From NCBI RefSeq assembly GCF_000223395.1, contig NC_015931.1, forward strand, positions 600,001 to 632,000: DNA of 32,000 nt, written 5' to 3'. The position numbers were made by a program, and so were the translations under genes. Shown one piece after another: positions 2 through 29,285 of this stretch (within the stretch, counting starts at the first letter, position 1; each line of letters starts with the position of its first letter). The notes beneath the pieces were generated by a model. That model was not told the DNA's origin. It was given only the letters and a program-made list of their open reading frames with translations, and searched no databases. The DNA is from Pyrolobus fumarii 1A. Its GTDB lineage: Archaea > Thermoproteota > Thermoprotei_A > Sulfolobales > Pyrodictiaceae.

Positions 2-3000
2 GATGCCGGGGTCAGAGCGGAGCCTTTCACCGCGAGGAACCCGGATGCACTCGAGAGGTTCCGTAGGGGCGAGACGCAGGTCCTGGTGGGCGTCGCGATA
101 TACTATGGTGTTGCGGTGCGTGGCCTCGACCTCCCCGAGAGGATAAGGTACGCTGTGTTCGCGGGCGTTCCTCGCCACAAGTTCTCCGCGCGCTTCGAGG
201 ACCCGCACCCAACCAACATCATGAGGGTATTGGGGCTCCTGGCTGAGCACGCGCCGGACGACGTGAGGAGTGAGGCTGAGAAGCTCCTGGCTAGGCTGCG
301 GAGGATCGTCCGGAGGCTCTCGGCGGCCGCCCTCCAGAAGCTCGCGGAGGAGTTGAGGAGCGGGGAGGTGTCGAGCGACGCTGCTAGGCTCTTCCAGGAG
401 GCACTGAGGTTCGTCCGCGAGGCTCTCTCGAGGAGTGATGTCTGGGAGGCTCTTGAGAAGGCGCCGGACGTGGCGATAGTGAGAGAGGGCGACAAGAGCT
501 ACATCATGATACCCGACGTGGCCACCTACATCCAGGCGAGTGGTAGGACCTCGAGGCTCTACGCGGGCGGTATAACCAAGGGCCTCTCAGTGATAGTCGT
601 GGACGATGATAGGCTGCTGGAGGGTCTTAGGAGGAGGCTACGCTGGTACATCGGCGAGGCTGAGATAAGGCCCCTCGAGGAGGTGGACCTCGACAAGCTG
701 CTCCGCGAGATAGACGAGGACCGCCGGCGCGTTAGGGATGTGCTCTCGGGGCGCGTGAAGCCAGAGTACCTGGAGCTGGTGAAAACCGCGCTGCTCATAG
801 TCGAGTCGCCCAACAAGGCCAGGACTATCGCCAGGTTCTTCGGTAGGCCGAGCGTCCGTGAGATAGCGGGTCTCCGCGCGTACGAGGTGTCGACCGGCGA
901 CTATGTGCTCACGATAGTCGCGTCGGGAGGCCACATCTACGACCTAGCCAAGACCTACTACCCGCTCGACGTGATACCATCCTGGTGGCTACGCGAGTTC
1001 AACTTCGAGGGGCGCGTCGCAAGCATAGACGAGTTCGTCACGGGCTTCGACTGGAGCAGCGCCGAGAACAAGCACGGTGTGTTCGTCGCGAAGAGGGGTA
1101 GCGTCCGGTACCTACCCGTGTACACGCCACTCGTCCGCTGCCCGGACTGCGGCTTCCAGAGCGCCGCGAACCCGTCACTAGCCCCCAACGAGGAGCAGAC
1201 CATACGCGACGTCATCAAGGCGAGGCTCGGCAAGGATGTCGACCCGTTCGACGAGAAGAGCTTGCCACGCTACTGCCCGAGGTGCGGCTCACCCTCCGTG
1301 AGGACCAGCCTACCCGTGATAGAGGCGCTGAGAGAGCTAGCCTCCGAGGTTGACATGGTGATGATCGGCACCGACCCTGACACTGAGGGCGAGAAGATTG
1401 GGTGGGACGTGGCTGCTCTCATAGCACCGTTCGCCAATAAGCTCGTGAGGGTCGAGTTCCACGAGGTGACGAGGAAGGCTATACTGGAGGCTATACGCAA
1501 CCCGAGGCCCTTCAACCCGAGGCTAGTAGAGGCCCAGACGGTGAGGCGCGTAGAGGACCGGTGGATAGGCTTCACACTCTCCCCGATACTCTGGCGCGAC
1601 TTCTGGCTCAACTACTACTGCCCGAGGATGACCGAGAGGCTGAGAAAACGCCTTGAGGCCATCCGCGCCAAGATACGCGCCTTGCGCAGGAGGGGCATGC
1701 GAGTACCAGACGAGCTGAAGAAGAGAATGGAGCGTATCGAGGCGCTCCTCAGAGCCTGTGAGGGCCCCAACCGTAACCTGAGCGCGGGTAGGGTCCAGAC
1801 GCCAGTGCTAGGCTGGGTGATAGACCGTTGGTCTAGGTTTAGCGGGGAGCAGAAGGCTTGCGCCGCGCGCCGTGGGCTGCCCAGCGAGGAGTGCCCGCGG
1901 CTACAGGTTACGGTGTCGAGTGATGGCGTGCGTGTCGTCTTCGAGGCTCCTGGGTCGCTGGCGCCAAGGCTGAGGCCGGGTACTCTCGTCGAGCTCGTCG
2001 AGGTTGGCAGGGAGGTTGTCGAGGAGAACCCGTTGCCGCCCTACACCACTGACACTATGCTGGCCGACGCGTGGGACAAGCTGAGGCTACCCGCGCCGGT
2101 AGCAATGCAGCTCGCGCAGGAGCTGTTCGAGATGGGCTTCATCACCTACCATAGGACGGACTCGACGCGGGTCAGCGACGCTGGTATCGCGGTTGCGCGC
2201 GAGTATATACGCCAGAAGTGGGGCGAGGAGGGTCTCGAGAAGCTCTTCCGCCCGAGGCGCTGGGAGCCGCCAAGGCTGATTGGTGTCGAGGCAGCCCACG
2301 AGGCTATACGCCCCACGAGACCGATAGATGCTGATACCCTCCGGAGGCTCATAGAGGAGGGTGTGATTGAGACCCCGAGGCCGTTGACAAAGAGGCACCT
2401 GGCGCTATACGATCTCATCTTCCGCAGGTTCATAGCGAGCCAGATGGCGCCCGCCAGGGTAGAGCTCCAGGTGTTGGAGGTTCGCCTGGGCGGCGAGAAG
2501 CTGGTAGAGGTCAAGAGGAGAGCGAAGATCGTTGAAGAGGGGTTCCTTATGATCTATAAGCCGTGGGAGGTTGAGGGGGAGGCGCCTGCCGGCGAGTACC
2601 GGGTTGTCAGTGTGAGGGGTAGGCCAGAGACCTGGCCGTTGACGCAAGCAGAGGTTGTGAGGATGATGAAGGAGAGGAAGATTGGCAGGCCGAGCACCTA
2701 CGCTAGGATCGTCGAGACTCTACACCAGAGGAAGTATGTGAAGACTCTGCCCAAAACCGGGTGGCTGATGCCTATGCCGCGCGGCCGCCTGGTGTACAAG
2801 TACTTGGCCGAGGAGCTTGGTAGCAAGATACCCGTCGTGAGAAACATGATATCCGAGGAGAGGACGAGGGAGCTACTAGAGCAGATGGATCTCGTCGAGG
2901 AGGGTAAGGTGGACTACCAGGTGCTCCTGGACGAGGTTTACCGGGAGCTACTGGAGGTTGAGAAGGCGCTGAAGGAGCTGACGGGGGGCACCCCAACGCC

Positions 3001-3083: not shown

Positions 3084-3950
3084 ATGGCCTCGGATGGTAA
3101 GACGCTACGCATAGCACTACTTCACATGAAGCTGAAGCTGCTAGTCAAGAGGACGAATCTCGACCGGGCTAGGAAGCTGTTGAGGGAAGCCGTGAGCAGG
3201 AACTCTGGCGGTATACACGTGGCGGTGCTACCCGCCTTTGTCAACATCGGCGCATTCTACCTCTACTACCCCGAGGCGAGAGCCAAGAACATTGTGAAGC
3301 ACCAGGCTGAGAGGATACCCGGGCCGACCACAGAGTACCTCAGCAAGGTTGCCATCGAGAACGGCGTGTACATCATAGGCGGGCCTATAATAGAGAGGGC
3401 GGGCCCAAGGATATTCATGACGACCTTCGTCCTAGCGCCCAACGGCGAGATCATATACAAGTATAGGAAGCTAGTGCTCAACGAGAGGGAGAAGAGCTAT
3501 GGCATAAGTAGCGGGAGGGAAGTGGTTACCCTCGAGCAGCTGCCTAGACGGATAGGCGTTATGTCGGAGGATGACCTGCTGGCACCCGAGGTGGCTAGGA
3601 GCCTAGTCCTCCAGGGTTCAACCGCGATTGTCCTCACGCTCAGCTTCTCCCAGCCAATAAACCTCGTCAAGAACCTCCTTCTCGCCAGGAGCATCGAGAA
3701 CCACGTACCGATCCTGGCGCTGGGTGGTATAGTAGAGCACGCCACCGAGAGGAAAGAAGTACCAACGATAATCGTCGACCCTGAGCAAGGCACGATAGCA
3801 GAGGAGCACTCAGGCGAGGAGAAGCCCCTAATAGTCGAGATGAGAGTGGATAAGGCGCTCAACCCCGGGACAAGCACAAACAACAACGATAACATGAGGA
3901 TGGCTGAGCTGCTCTGTAGGGTACTCCGCGAGCTCAAAATGTCCAGATAG
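3084..3950 (+). CDS. Carbon-nitrogen hydrolase (nitrilase superfamily) homologue with a substituted catalytic triad; probable pseudoenzyme.
   Basis: Collinear with the CN-hydrolase blocks. VAVLPAFVNIGA aligns with (V)VLPELFxTGY, KYRKLVL with YRKxHLF, and IGVMSEDDLLAPEVAR with xGxxICxDxxFPExxR. Catalytic Glu reads Ala (3234-3236), Lys is kept, Cys reads Ser (3564-3566). Confidence 0.8.
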   Translation: MASDGKTLRIALLHMKLKLLVKRTNLDRARKLLREAVSRNSGGIHVAVLPAFVNIGAFYLYYPEARAKNIVKHQAERIPGPTTEYLSKVAIENGVYIIGGPIIERAGPRIFMTTFVLAPNGEIIYKYRKLVLNEREKSYGISSGREVVTLEQLPRRIGVMSEDDLLAPEVARSLVLQGSTAIVLTLSFSQPINLVKNLLLARSIENHVPILALGGIVEHATERKEVPTIIVDPEQGTIAEEHSGEEKPLIVEMRVDKALNPGTSTNNNDNMRMAELLCRVLRELKMSR

Positions 3951-4039
3951 CAGGGAGAGACACCCACAAGTTAACCGTACTGTTCACTCCGCGCGCTGTC
4001 CGCCCAAACCGAGACTGTAACTCCACACTGACTGCTCCC

Positions 4040-4089
4040 CAGGCTTTCTGAGCCAGAGGTCCGGGGTTCAAATCCCCGCGGGCCCGCCA
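4040..4089 (+). tRNA. Orphan 3' portion of a tRNA-Arg(UCU)-like gene: anticodon arm, variable loop, T arm, 3' acceptor strand, discriminator and CCA. No 5' acceptor strand or D arm is present.
   Basis: Sequence CAGGC-TTTCTGA-GCCAG-AGGTC-CGGGG-TTCAAAT-CCCCG-CGGGCCC-G-CCA. It matches the intact tRNA-Arg(UCG) at 29208-29285 at 35 of 40 positions from nt 38 to CCA, with a compensatory T-stem change. No GGGYYYG partner strand was found in 3780-4040. Confidence 0.6.
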
Positions 4090-4149
4090 CAAAACAATCA
4101 ACTGCACCTCGCGACTAGGAGACCGTTACCGATTCATCCGCGTGTCTAA

Positions 4150-4413
4150 GTGGGATACGGGGGTGTTTGGAGCTTGTCTCGCGAGGTTGTAGTTAGGGTT
4201 AGAGTGCCTGCCCACTACACGGGGGACGTGGAGAGAGAGATTAGGCTGGCTTACGCCATAGACCTTTTCGTCCGCGGGGTGATTAGTGTTGAACGTGCAG
4301 CTGAGCTGGCTGACATGAGCCTCTACGACTTCCTCTACGAGCTCCGTAAGAGAGGGATAGTGGCCTACCAGTACAGCGACGAGGAGGCAAGGGAGGAGTT
4401 AAAAATTGAATAG
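4150..4413 (+). CDS. UPF0175-family (COG2886-like) antitoxin candidate.
   Basis: Small protein with the family-typical core REIRLAYAIDLFVRGVISVERAAELADMSLYDFLYELRKRGI. It overlaps the downstream PIN gene by 8 nt. The GTG start at 4150 is uncertain (TTG at 4174 is possible). Confidence 0.75.
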   Translation: MGYGGVWSLSREVVVRVRVPAHYTGDVEREIRLAYAIDLFVRGVISVERAAELADMSLYDFLYELRKRGIVAYQYSDEEAREELKIE

Positions 4414-4906
4414 ACGCTGTATTGTGGTCAACTCGAGTGTCGTAATAGCCCTAGCGCGGGTGAACCTACTAGACGTCATAATCAGACTCTACAAAGAAGT
4501 CATCATACCCTCTGCGGTATATGACGAGGTCGTGATTAGAGGTCAGGGTAGGCCTGGATCCGAGGAGCTTGAAATGCTGGTACAGCAAGGTAAAGCTAGG
4601 CTTCTCAGTCCAGGCGATAAGAGGCTAGTAGAGGCGTTACACGATCCACTGGGCCTCGGTGAAGCAGAAGCGATAGCACTAGCGCTTGAACATGGTTGCA
4701 TCGTTGCGCTCGATGATAGAATTGCTAGATCCAAAGCCAGGTCTATGGGGTTGAAGGTTATAGGCACGCTTGGACTTCTACGGGAAGCTTACGATACAAA
4801 CATCATAGATAAGGATAGGTTAATCCAAAGCCTAGAGCAACTTAGACAACACGGTTTCAGGATATCGGAGCGTGTATTACGGGAACTTATAGGTAAGCTG
4901 GGTTAA
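4406..4906 (+). CDS. PIN-like nuclease of the DUF3368/COG2405 type; toxin partner of UPF0175.
   Basis: Motifs GLGEAEAIALALE, VALDDRIARSKARSMGLKVIGTLGLL and IIPSAVYDEV. Translationally coupled to the upstream antitoxin-like gene. The N-terminal strand reads VVNSS, where many PIN domains have an Asp. Confidence 0.8.
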   Translation: MNRRCIVVNSSVVIALARVNLLDVIIRLYKEVIIPSAVYDEVVIRGQGRPGSEELEMLVQQGKARLLSPGDKRLVEALHDPLGLGEAEAIALALEHGCIVALDDRIARSKARSMGLKVIGTLGLLREAYDTNIIDKDRLIQSLEQLRQHGFRISERVLRELIGKLG

Positions 4907-5049
4907 GCAAACAGCATAGCGTTATATCCGCATTTGAAGCTCTTAGCCACCCCGTGAACCCCTGGAACCACCGCACTGTAACCATAGTCTAGATCCGCTC
5001 AACGACCATAGAAAATGCATGCACGCTATGCATACCAGGCTGTACCCCC

Positions 5050-5073
5050 GATAGAGCGCCAGCCTTCGGAGCC
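5050..5073 (+). pseudogene. tRNA-Arg(UCG)-derived fragment (end of D loop, D-stem 3' strand, anticodon stem 5' strand and loop).
   Basis: GATAGAGCGCCAGCCTTCGGAGCC matches GATAGAGCGCCGGCCTTCGGAGCC of the intact tRNA-Arg at 29208-29285 at 23/24 positions. The similarity ends inside the anticodon stem 3' strand, and there is no T arm or acceptor. Confidence 0.55.
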
Positions 5074-5234
5074 CCAAGACCCCTCTGAACTACGGAGACG
5101 AGGATGGCGCCAGCCAAGGTACTAACGTCACCTAATAGGGTGTCAACGCCTCCTCTACTCCAACACCTACGATCACCCGTTGTGTAGGAGCTTGGTGCTC
5201 GGCCGCCGGTCAGTCGTCACAGCCTTGCGGCTCG

Positions 5235-5287
5235 GGGCCCGTAACTCTCCTCACAGCATTCCAGTTGCCAGCCTTACACCGGAGCCC
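5235..5287 (+). pseudogene. Second tRNA-Arg-derived fragment: 5' acceptor strand and start of the D stem, then an anticodon-arm piece with a 4-nt insertion.
   Basis: GGGCCCGTAACTC matches GGGCCCGTAGCTC at 12/13. After 19 unrelated nt comes GCCAGCCTT-ACAC-CGGAGCC, the same 16-mer as 5058-5073 interrupted by ACAC. It cannot fold into a cloverleaf. Confidence 0.45.
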
Positions 5288-5470
5288 TATTAGCCATAAG
5301 CTACTCGCCGGAGCCGAGAATATACCAGAGTCGTGTATCTGGATGTTTCACACACATCTCCTTCTGTTGAGCCTCGGTTCCAGATTTTGAACAGTGTCGC
5401 GTCTAGACGAGGGGTGGTTATAGGGGGCGTATGGCGTATACTCTCTGGCAGGCGCGTTAGGGTGAGCTAG

Positions 5471-9227: not shown

Positions 9228-9303
9228 GCCGGGGTAGCTCAGCTGGTAGAGCGCCGGGCTGTTAACCCGGTGGTCGGTGGTTCGAATCCACCCCCCGGCG
9301 CCA
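9228..9303 (+). tRNA. tRNA-Asn (anticodon GUU), CCA encoded.
   Basis: GCCGGGG-TA-GCTC-AGCTGGTA-GAGC-G-CCGGG-CTGTTAA-CCCGG-TGGTC-GGTGG-TTCGAAT-CCACC-CCCCGGC-G-CCA. The cloverleaf is perfect. Confidence 0.97.
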
Positions 9304-14047: not shown

Positions 14048-14156
14048 GGGGCCGTCGTCTAGCCTGGACTAGGATGCCAGCCTGGGGCGTGGAGCCCCGC
14101 GCCGGGGTCCACCCGGATCGCTGGTGGCCCGGGTTCAAATCCCGGCGGCCCCACCA
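14048..14156 (+). tRNA. tRNA-Pro (anticodon GGG) with a 31-nt intron at the canonical 37/38 position, CCA encoded.
   Basis: GGGGCCG-TC-GTCT-AGCCTGGACTA-GGAT-G-CCAGC-CTGGGG[CGTGGAGCCCCGCGCCGGGGTCCACCCGGAT]C-GCTGG-TGGC-CCGGG-TTCAAAT-CCCGG-CGGCCCC-A-CCA. The intron contains the hairpin GTGGAGCCCCG/CGGGGTCCAC. Confidence 0.93.
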
Positions 14157-24392: not shown

Positions 24393-24500
24393 ACAAGCGT
24401 CTATGTGTAAAACCTTCCGGGAGCCCCAACATCACTTGGCACACCCGGTAGAAGAAACACAGGAAACCCCACAGGCGTCGACCAAGTATAGGAGCACGGT

Positions 24501-24920
24501 ATGAAGACGAACGCTTTCGAAGTAGCCTACCGCTACGTCTACCCATCGGTCAGGAAGCGGCTAGTCGAGAAGCTCAGCGAAAAGGGCCTAACCCAGACAG
24601 AGATAGCCAAGCTACTCCACATAACACAGTCGGCAGTCTCACGCTACCTATCAGCCGAGCGAGGAGCCCCACTAGACCTCAAACCCTACCCGGACATAGA
24701 CGCCGAGCTGGAACAGCTAGCCCAGGAGATACTATCAAGTCATCCAGACGAATACCAGATACATTACCACCTAGTCCGCATATCCCTCGAGGTGCTCAGG
24801 CGAGGCTACGCATGCCAACTCCATGCAACCATAGACCCCGGACTAGATCCCAAAAAATGCAAGACATGTATAATACTCTTCAATTCTCCGACCGCAAAAC
24901 AAGCACTAGAAGCAAATTGA
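24501..24920 (+). CDS. HTH transcriptional regulator (COG2522-like) with a C-terminal Cys cluster, divergent from hcp.
   Basis: HTH LTQTEIAKLLHITQSAVSRYLS. C-terminal YACQLH-x11-KKCKTC (C-x14-C-x2-C). Confidence 0.75.
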   Translation: MKTNAFEVAYRYVYPSVRKRLVEKLSEKGLTQTEIAKLLHITQSAVSRYLSAERGAPLDLKPYPDIDAELEQLAQEILSSHPDEYQIHYHLVRISLEVLRRGYACQLHATIDPGLDPKKCKTCIILFNSPTAKQALEAN

Positions 24921-24990
24921 ATTGTTTCCTCAACAGTTTAGCGTCTGTTCCTTAGCCGTGCAACCCATAGATAAGCCAGCTTAGTGAGCA

Positions 24991-25014
24991 CAAGGCCCAA
25001 TCGAATATCATATC
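24991..25014. repeat. Perfect 12-bp tandem duplication (tcgaatatcata x2) at the G+C to A+T compositional boundary.
   Basis: tcgaatatcata at 24991-25002 and again at 25003-25014. Confidence 0.9.
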
Positions 25015-25082
25015 GAATATCATAACGTGGCCTCTCACGGTTAGGCTTATACTACAATTTATACTTACTGGCGTCAAGGGTT

Positions 25083-26267
25083 TTGCTGGAATTGAAGCAG
25101 AGGTACGATATAAGGAGGTTTACCACGGACAATACCGAGACTGATAAATTACGAATCTTGATAATGCTAAAGGACAGACTTCCAGCTTCATTTTCCAACT
25201 ACATAAGATACTTAGCTGAAGGCATTAGAAGGATTGCAAAATCACGTATTGAGTTGCTTTTCATACACATTAACGATTTTAAAGGCTTAGCTTGTAAGGA
25301 TAAAGGTCACGATAGGATAGTTCTACATATACCCTTCCTAGGAGACGGCAGTTACCCAAGATTGTATGACTTACTTAAAGCGAAAATGTGCAAAATGAAA
25401 GTCGTAGTGACGTTACACGGTTTCAACACTTGTGCAGCACGTCACGAGCTAATGGCCCGAAGCATGCCATGTCCACATGAATATTGCAGTACTAAACGAG
25501 TATTATATGATGTTAGGAAGAAAATACTGTGGAATATCATTTCAAGAATAGCGTTAGTAGATGCCATTATCACTCCTTCTTGGTCGGAGAAAAATGTCCT
25601 AATGAAATGCCTAGGAATACCAGAGAAACGTATATACGTAATACACCATGGTGTGGACACTGATTTGTATAGACCTCGTTCGCGGAAGGAATGTTCCCAT
25701 ATCCTAGCCAAATACAAAATTGGTGATAGTTACATCCTTCACGTGAGCAATTATCAACCTGTGAAGAACGTCGAAAGGATAGTTGCCGCATATGCTCTAC
25801 TTAAGAGGAAGTTTGGAATTAAAGAGAAGCTCGTTATTGCCGGTAGACAGCCCCGAGAGCGAATATTACGCCTCGCTATTAGCCTTGGTTTAAACCCTAG
25901 GGATATCATCTTTACCGGGGTAGTTTCAAGAGACGATCTCCCATGCCTATATAGTGCCGCTAAAGTACTTGTAATGCCAAGCATACATGAGAGCTTTGGC
26001 ATGCCCATCCTTGAGGCTATGGCCTGTGGATGTCCAGTGGTGACATCAAGCGTTTATGCATGTGTAGAAGTTTCTGATAATGCAGCTCTGATTGTTGACC
26101 CATTTGACGTGAAGGAAATTGCAATGAGTGTTTATAAAATACTTGCAGATGATGAATTGAGAGCGGAGCTTATACGTAGAGGCATAACCAGAACAAAATC
26201 GTTCACTTGGGAGAAATCAGTCTTAATGCATCTTAAAGTGTATGAGACTGTTACTGGATCAAGGTGA
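25083..26267 (+). CDS. Group 1 (GT4-family) glycosyltransferase.
   Basis: E-x7-E motif region ESFGMPILEAMACGCPVVTS. Upstream block LVIAGRQP...GVVSRDDLPCLYSAAKVLVMPS. TTG start is uncertain. Two ttatact TATA-like boxes lie at ~25046 and ~25059. Confidence 0.88.
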   Translation: MLELKQRYDIRRFTTDNTETDKLRILIMLKDRLPASFSNYIRYLAEGIRRIAKSRIELLFIHINDFKGLACKDKGHDRIVLHIPFLGDGSYPRLYDLLKAKMCKMKVVVTLHGFNTCAARHELMARSMPCPHEYCSTKRVLYDVRKKILWNIISRIALVDAIITPSWSEKNVLMKCLGIPEKRIYVIHHGVDTDLYRPRSRKECSHILAKYKIGDSYILHVSNYQPVKNVERIVAAYALLKRKFGIKEKLVIAGRQPRERILRLAISLGLNPRDIIFTGVVSRDDLPCLYSAAKVLVMPSIHESFGMPILEAMACGCPVVTSSVYACVEVSDNAALIVDPFDVKEIAMSVYKILADDELRAELIRRGITRTKSFTWEKSVLMHLKVYETVTGSR

Positions 26268-27235
26268 GTATCGTGATAAAGCTAATTGCGTCAAGAGCTT
26301 ACCTGTTTGTAAGAAGCACGTTAAACAAAATGCTGATACCCAAGGGTTTTGTAGCAGTGAAAGTTAATGATAATCAATTGTTCTTTTTCGATCCCTCTAA
26401 CTCCTCTCAGGGATTTCTGCTTTACACCACTGGCAAGTATGGATCTGGAACAGAACTATTAGCACAATTGTTCTTTTCACACATTATTAAGAATGGTTAT
26501 GTTGTTGTCGACGTCGGGGCTCATTTTGGTTTTTACACTCTGATTGCAGCTGCAAAAGTTGGTAAATCCGGACTCGTCATGGCCTTTGAACCTAGTAAAA
26601 CGAACTTCCGCGTCTTAAGAGTGAACATCTTAGCAAATAGACTTACAAATGTTAAGCTTTACAAGGTAGCATTGGCGGATGAGAATGGTAGAGCTGTTTT
26701 AGGTGTTCCTAGAGGGCGCTTGTCCGGAGAGAATACACTAGCTGTTAACCCTTCACAAGCAGAGCAGCTTGAAGTTGTTGAAGTAAGAAGGTTTGACGAG
26801 ATAGCGGAAGAAGAAGGGATAAGCAAAGTGGATGTCGTAAAGATAGATGTTGAGGGAGCAGAGTATAAGGTTCTCAAGGGATTCGGGAATTATCTGGACA
26901 CATGTAAGTATATAATCTTAGAGGTTCATCCAAGCCAGATGGTTAAGCTTGGTACAAGCCCAAAGGAACTCTACGCTTTGCTAAATAGACATGGTTACAA
27001 CCTATATTGGCTCGACAAGAAAGCTGGGATTATCCCCGTATCCCATAACAGGCTTATGTCCAAGATATTGACGCGACATCACCTGATTTGCGCAAAACAA
27101 GACTTAGAATTGGACAAAATAAGACTAAGGCTTATGAAGTATGACTTGATAGTTAAATCCTCATTTACTAGAAGACAGAGGTTGGCAATGTTGTTTAACA
27201 ATCCCAAGTATATATTTAGAAGACAAAATATCTAA
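26264..27235 (+). CDS. FkbM-family SAM-dependent methyltransferase.
   Basis: VVVDVGAHFGFYTLIAA (SAM motif I) and VDVVKIDVEGAEYKVLKG (FkbM signature). 4-nt overlap with the GT4 gene. Confidence 0.85.
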   Translation: MSIVIKLIASRAYLFVRSTLNKMLIPKGFVAVKVNDNQLFFFDPSNSSQGFLLYTTGKYGSGTELLAQLFFSHIIKNGYVVVDVGAHFGFYTLIAAAKVGKSGLVMAFEPSKTNFRVLRVNILANRLTNVKLYKVALADENGRAVLGVPRGRLSGENTLAVNPSQAEQLEVVEVRRFDEIAEEEGISKVDVVKIDVEGAEYKVLKGFGNYLDTCKYIILEVHPSQMVKLGTSPKELYALLNRHGYNLYWLDKKAGIIPVSHNRLMSKILTRHHLICAKQDLELDKIRLRLMKYDLIVKSSFTRRQRLAMLFNNPKYIFRRQNI

Positions 27236-27378
27236 GGCTTTATTAAGTTAGATGCTGGATACGTATCGTCCTTCAAACACGAGCGATAATATTTCGCATC
27301 GAAGGCGATGCTTAACTTGCCGCCTAAAGGTTATAGTTTTAGTTAACTCTCGAGAGCTACTTTCGGGAGATAAAAGCA

Positions 27379-28950
27379 ATGCTTTTACATGACGGTAGTC
27401 GTGTGTCATTGATAGGTATCGACGGTGGTAATTGGCACGTACTACATTGGTTAATTAACGACGGTTATATGCCAAATTTAAAGGAGATTACAACGAGAGG
27501 AGCAAGTGGCATTTTAATTTCACTTATACCGCCGGTAACCGCACCTGCTTGGCTTTCTATAGCAACTGGTTTAACACCTGGTGAAACAGGCGTAATTGAC
27601 TTCTTTAAGGTCATTGATACGAGTAGTTATAGTCTGGAACTAGTCTCTGCAAAGGATTATAAAGGAAGGTCTATATGGGATTATGCCTCATTAATTGGTT
27701 ATAAAGTTGCAGTGTTAGACTACCCGCTTCTGTACCCGGCTTACCAGGTAAATGGTATCATGGTATCATCGTGGGGTGGTAAGGTCACAACATACCCAGA
27801 GGACTACATTAATACCATTCGCGAGCTAGTAGGCGAGTATAACATAATAGTCAGTTACAACAATATAGAGTATAATGACCTTGATTTATTCCTTGAGCAC
27901 ATCGAGAAAGCAGCCAATGTAAAGCTACGGGTGTCTAACCATACCCTCAGCCTTGCTAAATGGGATCTGTTCGTAGATGTCATCTCCTTTACGGACTGGC
28001 TTCAACATAGAATGTGGCATGTTATAGATAATAACCATCCTCTGCATCGTAGAGTTCCTAATGTAGGGTATTACCGAAGACGTTTTGCTGAACTCTGGTC
28101 GATCCTAGACGAGTATATCGGAAAGATTAGGGACAACTTTGACATCGTGATAATAGTCTCTGATCATGGTTTTGGACCACACTGGGGAGTACTAAACATC
28201 GTCAAGTTGTTTGAAGCTAAGGGACTTATCAAGATACGTAGATTGAGCAGCAAAGAAAGATTGCTAGCCAGGATAATTGACATTGTAAGACACACTAAAC
28301 TGCGTAATATTATTCCTAAAAGAGCCCGCACTGTAGGCAGAAAGATGTATAAGCAACTTAGAAGCATCAACAAACATTTAGACATTGATGCGAGCTTAGT
28401 CATTATACCTGAGTTCACAATACCCTTCGGGGGCGTATTTGTCAATAGCAAGTTTAGCGATAAGCGCGATGATATAATAAAAAAGATTGTTGACGCGCTT
28501 AGATGGATCGAAGAGAATACCAACGGTAATGTGAGAATAAGATACTGGTTGAAAGAGGAGATATATGATGGCCCATATGTGGAAAAATTGCCGGATATAA
28601 TACTTGCCGTTAATGACTGGAAGAGTGTGGTAGTAAAGAGCCTCGAGGGTCCTATCTATAAGGATGACGTCTATTCTCCTCGGCATACCGGAAGCCACAG
28701 AATGGAAGGTATAATCATCGTGGATGGCACGAGAGTCAAGAAGAAGAATATCAAAGCCCATGTGACAGATGTTGCACCAACATTGATGTACATCATGGGA
28801 TTGCCTATACCATCTAATATTAAAGGACGTGTTCTACGAGAAATAGTGGAACTAGATAGGGAGCCCATACATGTTGACCCAACATATTATGCTAAGCTTA
28901 GACTCCGCATGAAGCTAAGACAAACGCTGAGACCGGATAAACCAACATGA
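27379..28950 (+). CDS. Alkaline-phosphatase-superfamily enzyme (type I phosphodiesterase/nucleotide pyrophosphatase-like), soluble.
   Basis: IGIDGGNW, PPVTAPAWLSIATGLTPGETG (nucleophile Thr block), VSDHGF and HTGSHRMEGI. No TM segments seen. Confidence 0.8.
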   Translation: MLLHDGSRVSLIGIDGGNWHVLHWLINDGYMPNLKEITTRGASGILISLIPPVTAPAWLSIATGLTPGETGVIDFFKVIDTSSYSLELVSAKDYKGRSIWDYASLIGYKVAVLDYPLLYPAYQVNGIMVSSWGGKVTTYPEDYINTIRELVGEYNIIVSYNNIEYNDLDLFLEHIEKAANVKLRVSNHTLSLAKWDLFVDVISFTDWLQHRMWHVIDNNHPLHRRVPNVGYYRRRFAELWSILDEYIGKIRDNFDIVIIVSDHGFGPHWGVLNIVKLFEAKGLIKIRRLSSKERLLARIIDIVRHTKLRNIIPKRARTVGRKMYKQLRSINKHLDIDASLVIIPEFTIPFGGVFVNSKFSDKRDDIIKKIVDALRWIEENTNGNVRIRYWLKEEIYDGPYVEKLPDIILAVNDWKSVVVKSLEGPIYKDDVYSPRHTGSHRMEGIIIVDGTRVKKKNIKAHVTDVAPTLMYIMGLPIPSNIKGRVLREIVELDREPIHVDPTYYAKLRLRMKLRQTLRPDKPT

Positions 28951-29207
28951 GAATATCATACAAGTAACTCCTCAATAAATTGCAAGCGAAGCGCGTCTAC
29001 ACTCCTGCTTAGCGCCAATTGGAAGATTGTTAATAGTTATAATCCTCGAAAGGCACGGATGATGCTTCAAACAGAGAGGTCCGAGATCCAGAAGCAGCCT
29101 TCTCGCAAAGTGCAACAAGAAAAGATAAATACAACTCGTAATCGCATACAGTTTCAAGTCATGTTACAGCATGATATTGCAAGAGCAACACGTTTACGAG
29201 TAAGATG

Positions 29208-29285
<78 letters not shown>

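Follow-up and report, generated by a model that had tools for sequence, protein, structure and literature searches.

The tRNA-like sequence at positions 4042–4089 of the stretch of Pyrolobus fumarii DNA analysed here (32,000 nt, hereafter the window) is very probably a relic without function, left by recombination at an attachment sequence that resembled tRNA-Arg, and bounds a toxin-antitoxin (TA) cassette. It is an orphan relic of integration and not part of a simple att pair, since there is neither an integrase nor a directly oriented intact tRNA-Arg nearby and the insertion lies outside any tRNA gene.

A 5′-truncated tRNA-Arg copy

Read directly, the letters of 4040–4089 fall into CAGGC, TTTCTGA, GCCAG, AGGTC, CGGGG, TTCAAAT, CCCCG, CGGGCCC, G and CCA. 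Re-reading them bore out the parts that an earlier note on this DNA had listed: an anticodon arm with the loop UUUCUGA, a variable loop, a T arm, the 3′ strand of the acceptor stem, the discriminator G and an encoded CCA. The note had counted all 50 bases as tRNA. The stretch 4042–4089 on the plus strand is indeed tRNA, truncated at its 5′ end (positions 29–76 and the encoded CCA); the CA at 4040–4041 is flank, the homology starting at position 29, and only part of the anticodon stem’s 5′ strand is therefore tRNA-derived.

In blastn-short comparisons the 48 bases were identical to the window’s tRNA-Arg(UCG) at 41/48 positions, which corrects the 35/40 given earlier, and to the UCU consensus at 45/48. 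The similarity to tRNA-Arg is well above chance (E = 7e-15 to 4e-11 in the 32-kb window, 7e-15 for the fragment’s best match), and a repeat search over the whole window paired 4042–4091 with 29206–29255 at 86%. The T stems differ in a compensatory manner (CGGGG/CCCCG in the fragment versus CCGGG/CCCGG in tRNA-Arg(UCG)), as had been correctly pointed out. The 48-base fragment is confirmed as a genuine 3′ part of a tRNA-Arg that has no 5′ partner in the window.

Searches for a complete tRNA or a 5′ half

ARAGORN found three tRNAs in the window, tRNA-Asn (9228–9303), tRNA-Arg(UCG) (29208–29285) and, with the -i option only, tRNA-Pro(GGG) (14048–14156); Rfam at the gathering threshold returned the identical three. 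The tRNA-Pro gene, on the plus strand, has a 31-nt intron, an encoded CCA and a CTTATAAA box upstream, and is missed by ARAGORN at default settings but found by Rfam and ARAGORN -i.

At 4040–4089 no cloverleaf, complete or interrupted by an intron, was found by ARAGORN (default, -i or low threshold) or by Rfam at gathering and E-value thresholds. Over 3700–4300, Rfam at E≤10 detected only the T arm and a mascRNA-like mini-helix, the latter below threshold (E = 0.044) and with two pairs broken. A “tRNA-Ser with a 424-nt intron” called by ARAGORN at low threshold was rejected, its acceptor and D arm being broken.

The earlier note had seen no 5′ partner or D arm just upstream of the fragment, and their absence held with ARAGORN, Rfam and BLAST when the search was widened to 32 kb: no 5′ half of the form GGGCCCG…D arm occurs on either strand of the window. 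A 16/17 match at 285–301 (minus strand) was set aside as a chance similarity; it lies antisense within the reverse gyrase ORF and lacks an acceptor strand. The leader of the fragment has no significant complement inside the window, and the RNA fold of leader plus fragment was not better than that of shuffled sequences (z = 0.29). Nor did a permuted tRNA gene emerge, as a second, downstream fragment at 5050–5073 covers tRNA positions 20–43 only, not positions 1 onwards, and the sequence before it is unrelated to an acceptor or D arm. An exact 37-mer of the 3′ fragment had no match in species-representative genomes (a set in which the source genome is absent or masked), and the fragment sequence had none in viral contigs.

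A TA pair between two permuted tRNA-Arg fragments

The fragment lies in a 1.24-kb segment specific to P. fumarii (3951–5189), which runs from the stop codon of a CN-hydrolase gene to a conserved non-coding block and has a GC content of 0.526, versus 0.62 in core genes. The CN-hydrolase gene (3084–3950) encodes a product 100% identical to a Pyrolobus fumarii 1A protein. From left to right the segment comprises 91 nt, the tRNA-Arg 3′ fragment, an antitoxin gene, a toxin gene, 143 nt, the second tRNA-Arg fragment and 116 nt. Neither tRNA fragment is at a tip of the segment; the outer 91 nt (left) and 116 nt (right) have no assigned origin.

The antitoxin gene (4150–4413, plus strand) belongs to the UPF0175 family (Pfam PF03683, E = 1.6e-17), and its start is probably the TTG at 4174, following the gene call on Logan contigs (79 aa). 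It is overlapped by 8 nt by the gene for a PIN-like/DUF3368 toxin, Pyrfu_0657 (4406–4906, plus strand; Pfam PF11848, 4e-13, and PF20698, 1e-6). Both genes are sense to the tRNA fragments.

The second tRNA-Arg-derived fragment (5050–5073, plus strand) had been overlooked in the earlier note. Its letters, GATAGAGCGCCAGCCTTCGGAGCC, are identical to tRNA-Arg(UCG) at 23/24 positions (E = 2e-5; 96% in the repeat search) and comprise the last part of the D loop, the D-stem 3′ strand, the anticodon-stem 5′ strand (CCAGC), the loop CUUCGGA and GCC. The two fragments have the same orientation and overlap at tRNA positions 29–43, where they read GGCTTTCTGAGCCAG and AGCCTTCGGAGCCCC and have TTC and GAGCC in common. 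Their order is permuted: the 3′ part comes first, then the TA genes, then the 5′/middle part. Between the stop codon of the PIN gene and the second fragment, a scan also picked up a palindrome, ATGCATGCACGCTATGCAT (5016–5035), which is terminator-like on the minus strand.

Synteny of the segment in related genomes

We compared the locus with two related Pyrodictiaceae genomes, L126 (GCA_054017235.1, 76% amino acid identity) and L129 (an ENA assembly, 77%). Both share the P. fumarii gene order of reverse gyrase, CN-hydrolase, HSP20-like protein, two large secreted proteins and tRNA-Asn. In both, the gap between the CN-hydrolase and HSP20-like genes measures 130–140 nt and holds neither TA genes nor a tRNA-Arg fragment, and nucleotide homology to P. 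fumarii ends at the CN-hydrolase stop codon and restarts at about window position 5195. The more distant relatives L128 and L131 have another gene order. The fragment is thus accompanied by accessory DNA missing from the syntenic site in relatives, as is characteristic of partial tRNAs derived from integration. The parsimonious reading, that the segment was inserted in P. fumarii rather than deleted in L126 and L129, is not strictly polarised; the two genomes possibly form a single lineage, and would then count as one independent lineage without the segment.

The 1.24-kb segment has no convincing terminal repeats, and Pfam and PHROGs scans of the ORFs of at least 25 aa in 3934–5293 yielded no integrase or integrase remnant. 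No intact tRNA-Arg is present nearby as a direct-repeat partner: the sole intact tRNA-Arg of the window (29208–29285) is 25 kb off, inverted and 86% identical. The insertion site of the segment is not inside a tRNA gene.

A resident tRNA-Arg gene could also have decayed in place, its 5′ part being deleted in P. fumarii and the whole region lost from the relatives, with no mobile cassette involved. We consider this improbable. The incomplete polarity of the comparison and the lack of an integrase would suit such a history, as would GGGCCCGTAACTC at 5235–5247, identical to the 5′ end of tRNA-Arg at 12/13 positions; but that match (E = 3.4) is not significant alone and lies within a 65-nt block that is kept in relatives without a tRNA there, and we rejected it as the missing 5′ end. 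Simple deletion, moreover, does not yield a permuted fragment order with TA genes in between, and tRNA-Arg sequences turn up repeatedly at the borders of this TA family in other genomes.

The 65-nt block itself (5195–5260, GCTCGGCCGCCGGTCAGTCGTCACAGCCTTGCGGCTCGGGGCCCGTAACTCTCCTCACAGC) is non-coding and nearly invariant across P. fumarii, L126 and L129, and in the latter two it directly follows the CN-hydrolase stop codon. It comprises a predicted hairpin and then two TCACAGC repeats, and might be a small RNA; its Rfam matches do not rise above noise. Elsewhere in the window, a low-GC island (about 24500–29200; GC 0.40 versus 0.55–0.62) adjoins the intact tRNA-Arg(UCG) at its 3′ end and carries genes for an HTH protein, a GT4 glycosyltransferase, an FkbM methyltransferase and a phosphodiesterase-family protein. 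As an element matching the fragment, this island (24.5–29.2 kb) was rejected: neither an integrase nor an att repeat was found in it, and it is on the wrong strand for a simple pair.

Related TA genes beside partial tRNA-Arg copies

Five close homologues of the PIN gene (57–73% amino acid identity) could be placed on contigs, one each from Aeropyrum camini and A. pernix and three from metagenome-assembled genomes (MAGs). The UPF0175/PIN pair adjoins 5′-truncated tRNA-Arg copies in 5/5 of these loci. An intact tRNA-Arg is also present in three of the five (L187, L134 and L185), and partial copies alone are found in L186 and L133. In the MAG locus L187, the TA pair lies between an intact tRNA-Arg(CCG) (c5586–5663) and a partial copy (c4194–4242) in a cassette of about 1.3 kb; the partial copy begins at position 31 and has the same CCG anticodon as the intact gene. 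The A. camini locus L134 likewise has its TA pair between an intact tRNA-Arg(GCG) (c7363–7441) and a partial copy (c4575–4619). In the A. pernix strain L185, an intact tRNA-Arg(GCG) (c7975–8053) is followed by three partial copies (c6718–6773, c4565–4619 and c3449–3503), with another TA pair in every interval. The remaining MAG loci contain two partial tRNA-Arg copies (L186) and one (L133).

The partial copies of the five loci start at tRNA positions ~23–31 and extend to the CCA, a range that includes the 5′ boundary of the P. fumarii fragment at position 29. Such copies are a well-known footprint of site-specific integration into the 3′ part of a tRNA gene, repeated in these loci so as to build arrays. 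In all five loci the TA genes are antisense to the tRNA pieces, at variable distances, whereas in P. fumarii they are sense. The 28-mer that forms the fragment’s T arm and acceptor strand is common to all tRNA-Arg isoacceptors across Thermoproteota in the species-representative genomes, and similar orphan 5′-truncated tRNA-Arg copies were found in L006, L016, L019, L053, L062, L095 and L100. Among 49 metagenome loci with distant PIN relatives, mostly non-archaeal, no tRNA or tRNA-Arg debris was found nearby, and the viral contigs contained no relatives of the PIN gene. The association between the TA pair and tRNA-Arg is confined to close archaeal relatives.

The cassettes and arrays downstream of tRNA-Arg(GCG/CCG) (L185, 2700–8053; L134, 4567–7441; L187, 4194–5663; L186, 1615–5641) have features of their own. 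Their layout is integron-like and they contain no integrase. The TA pairs are of several kinds (AF2212-like with PIN, UPF0175 with DUF3368, DUF433 with PIN_10, and a 63-aa protein with PIN_2), each bounded by a 5′-truncated tRNA-Arg copy. Each partial tRNA is abutted by a conserved arm of about 100 nt that contains two TGTCCCA boxes, the inverted repeat GTCCCA-N-TGGGAC and TATTTA; this Aeropyrum-type arm (GTCCCA-N-TGGGAC and TATTTA) is absent from the P. fumarii window. Among the orphan copies, those of the archaeal MAGs L019, L062 (the copy at 2821–2848), L095 and L100 are directly preceded, at the place of the D arm, by TTTATAA or TTATAAG, a motif that resembles the TATTTA arm of the Aeropyrum cassettes.

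These loci shape what remains of the proposal, made in the earlier note, that the fragment is an integrase att core. In the broad sense it gains support, from the lineage-specific TA segment in P. fumarii and from homologous TA pairs lying between an intact tRNA-Arg and a truncated copy. As a simple att core it does not stand, given that no integrase or remnant and no directly oriented intact tRNA-Arg were found nearby. Put differently, the locus combines three marks of an integration-derived partial tRNA (a tRNA copy limited to the 3′ part, accessory DNA next to it, and the same cargo found with such copies elsewhere) and lacks two (an intact direct-repeat partner and an integrase).

The recurrence of this TA family beside tRNA-Arg pieces might alternatively mean that these pieces work as RNA within the TA module, either as a processing signal (an RNase P/Z substrate) at the 5′ end of the TA transcript or by mimicking a target of the PIN RNase or acting as its decoy. 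PIN/VapC toxins are known to cut tRNAs, and in P. fumarii the fragment precedes the antitoxin start by 60–85 nt, on the strand of the TA genes, and gives the mascRNA-like mini-helix match described above. We nonetheless hold such a role to be very improbable: the antisense tRNA pieces at variable distances in the five other loci leave no conserved arrangement at the RNA level, the fold is no better than that of shuffled sequences, the mini-helix match is sub-threshold with its two broken pairs, and integration at tRNA-Arg is a simpler account of the association.

The anticodon loop and the source of tRNA-Arg(UCU)

The loop of the fragment was compared with those of 75 intact intron-less tRNAs that contain its 28-mer, among them 29 UCU, 9 CCU and 33 CGN readers. 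C32 and A37 are present in 29/29 UCU and 9/9 CCU genes, and G37 in 32/33 CGN readers; the fragment combines U32, UCU and G37, which is not seen in any of the 38 intact genes for Arg(UCU/CCU). In tRNAs that read ANN codons, t6A depends on A37. The comparison shows that the anticodon loop of the fragment is not that of a working tRNA-Arg(UCU), which renders doubtful the earlier suggestion of descent from a separate UCU isoacceptor that was functional. The sequence may have been of UCG type, its UCU triplet having arisen by decay or as an artefact of a junction. By eye, we saw no TATA-like box in 3951–4041; such boxes lie 35–45 nt upstream of the genuine tRNAs (CTTATAAA for tRNA-Pro and CTTAAAA for tRNA-Arg(UCG)).

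AGA accounts for 36 of the 275 Arg codons in eight genes of the window, and this use implies a UCU tRNA somewhere in P. fumarii. An intact canonical tRNA-Arg(UCU) directly follows alaS-DUF434 in Pyrodictium occultum and in two MAGs of Pyrodictiaceae; its last 31 nt (GTCC…GCCA) equal window 4059–4089, and the preceding base differs. Logan contigs from four P. fumarii read sets (L001–L005) end at 4085/4088 and restart at 4060/4074. Because these contigs come from a k=31 graph and break around the 31-mer 4059–4089, the same 31-mer should also occur elsewhere in the P. fumarii genome, presumably in one or more other tRNA-Arg genes. An attempt to reach the P. fumarii tRNA-Arg(UCU) through alaS-DUF434 synteny gave no P. 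fumarii protein in the DUF434 search. An intact canonical gene would be by far the likeliest source of the UCU tRNA in P. fumarii.

It is most improbable that the fragment is the 3′-half gene of a split, trans-spliced tRNA-Arg(UCU), the other reading in the earlier note, with a leader that would pair with the trailer of a 5′ half elsewhere in the genome, the two being joined by the splicing endonuclease and a ligase. The break at 28/29 is near the split positions known from Nanoarchaeum and Caldivirga, a CCA is encoded here and in the window’s genuine tRNAs alike, the 36 AGA codons demand a UCU tRNA and an intact P. fumarii UCU gene was not directly seen; yet the 5′ half is absent from the 32 kb, the locus belongs to a TA-bearing segment missing from relatives, the U32/G37 loop occurs in 0/38 intact UCU/CCU genes, there is by eye no upstream TATA-like box of the kind that tRNA-Pro and tRNA-Arg(UCG) have, an intact UCU gene after alaS-DUF434 is the family norm, the contig breaks point to another gene with the same 3′ 31-mer, and like truncated copies elsewhere adjoin intact genes with the same anticodon. 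Our literature search found nothing on split tRNAs or tRNA fragments in P. fumarii.

Proposed origin of the fragment

Returning to the reading of the fragment as a recombination relic, we infer that the TA cassettes move as circles with a tRNA-like attP, a tyrosine recombinase being supplied in trans. By one route (a), a circle whose attP spanned approximately positions 20–76, with a UCG-type loop and G37, would have recombined, at or near GAGCC, with a non-tRNA site. At the left junction, host GGCTTTCT would then be fused to element GAGCCAG…, so that the “UCU” with G37 would be a chimera. By another route (b), one cassette with parts of both flanking att copies would have been excised from an array of the A. 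pernix kind and reinserted at this site, and the UCU triplet would be due to decay. Either route would produce the observed order of 3′ part, cargo and 5′ part in one orientation, with the overlap at 29–43. The fragment would not be expected to give rise to a tRNA. A simple tie to the Aeropyrum-type cassettes is disfavoured by the sense orientation of the TA genes here and by the absence of the conserved arm.

Tentatively, and with more doubt than confidence, we raise the possibility that the P. fumarii fragment is the end of one member of an undescribed class of integrase-less, TA-only cassettes in Desulfurococcales/Pyrodictiaceae. Such cassettes would have a tRNA-Arg-like attP, would form integron-like arrays downstream of tRNA-Arg (four in A. 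pernix L185) and would depend on a trans-acting recombinase; in P. fumarii the copy would occupy a non-tRNA secondary site, with a chimeric “anticodon loop”.

Comparison with known systems and implications

SSV-type and pNOB8-type integration in Crenarchaeota leaves att scars of tyrosine recombinases beside captured genes. The P. fumarii fragment resembles such attL/attR remnants in being the 3′ portion of a tRNA with a 5′ boundary in the anticodon arm and with accessory DNA adjoining. It differs from them in that there is no partitioned or intact integrase and no direct intact partner, the site is not in a tRNA gene and two permuted fragments are present.

Split tRNA half genes are known from Nanoarchaeum equitans, Caldivirga maquilingensis, Staphylothermus and Aeropyrum. 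Like them, the fragment is a stand-alone 3′ portion with a boundary near 29/30; unlike them, it comes without a 5′ half in the window, leader/trailer pairing, a promoter (by eye), a canonical loop or conservation of the locus.

The cis-mobilizable elements (CIMEs) of Firmicutes are integrase-less and flanked by att sites. Tycheposon islands of Prochlorococcus consist of cargo modules separated by partial tRNAs in arrays (bioRxiv 10.1101/2020.12.28.424599). The TA cassettes resemble both in carrying a small cargo between att or partial-tRNA copies without a recombinase of their own, and arrays built by successive integration are a feature of tycheposons as they are of A. pernix L185. They differ in their hyperthermophilic archaeal host, in a cargo of TA genes only, and in that their mobility and the recombinase in trans are deduced; the P. 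fumarii copy further differs in lying away from any tRNA gene.

Partial tRNAs are well documented as scars of integration (PMC3718332; PMC9897764; bioRxiv 10.1101/2020.12.28.424599), and TA genes of the vapBC type are known among the cargo that insertions at tRNA genes carry (PMC3718332). In archaeal genomes, fragments of tRNA genes have been wrongly scored as tRNA genes (van der Gulik et al. 2023, PMC9897764). The P. fumarii fragment is, like those, a non-canonical partial tRNA left by the integration of a genetic element; unlike those, it is too short for ARAGORN and Rfam and has gone unannotated rather than mis-annotated.

On present evidence, a negative result in this respect, P. fumarii should not join the list of archaea with split tRNAs, and the fragment should be annotated neither as a tRNA nor as a tRNA half. 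The locus also marks Pyrfu_0656/0657 as horizontally acquired. It adds a case of a tRNA-derived attachment sequence away from any tRNA gene. The fragment itself is an ordinary trace of gene transfer, and the more interesting lead is offered by the arrays of TA cassettes in Aeropyrum and the MAGs: the Aeropyrum arrays, with their TA genes separated by partial tRNA-Arg copies, could explain how TA systems spread among hyperthermophilic archaea.
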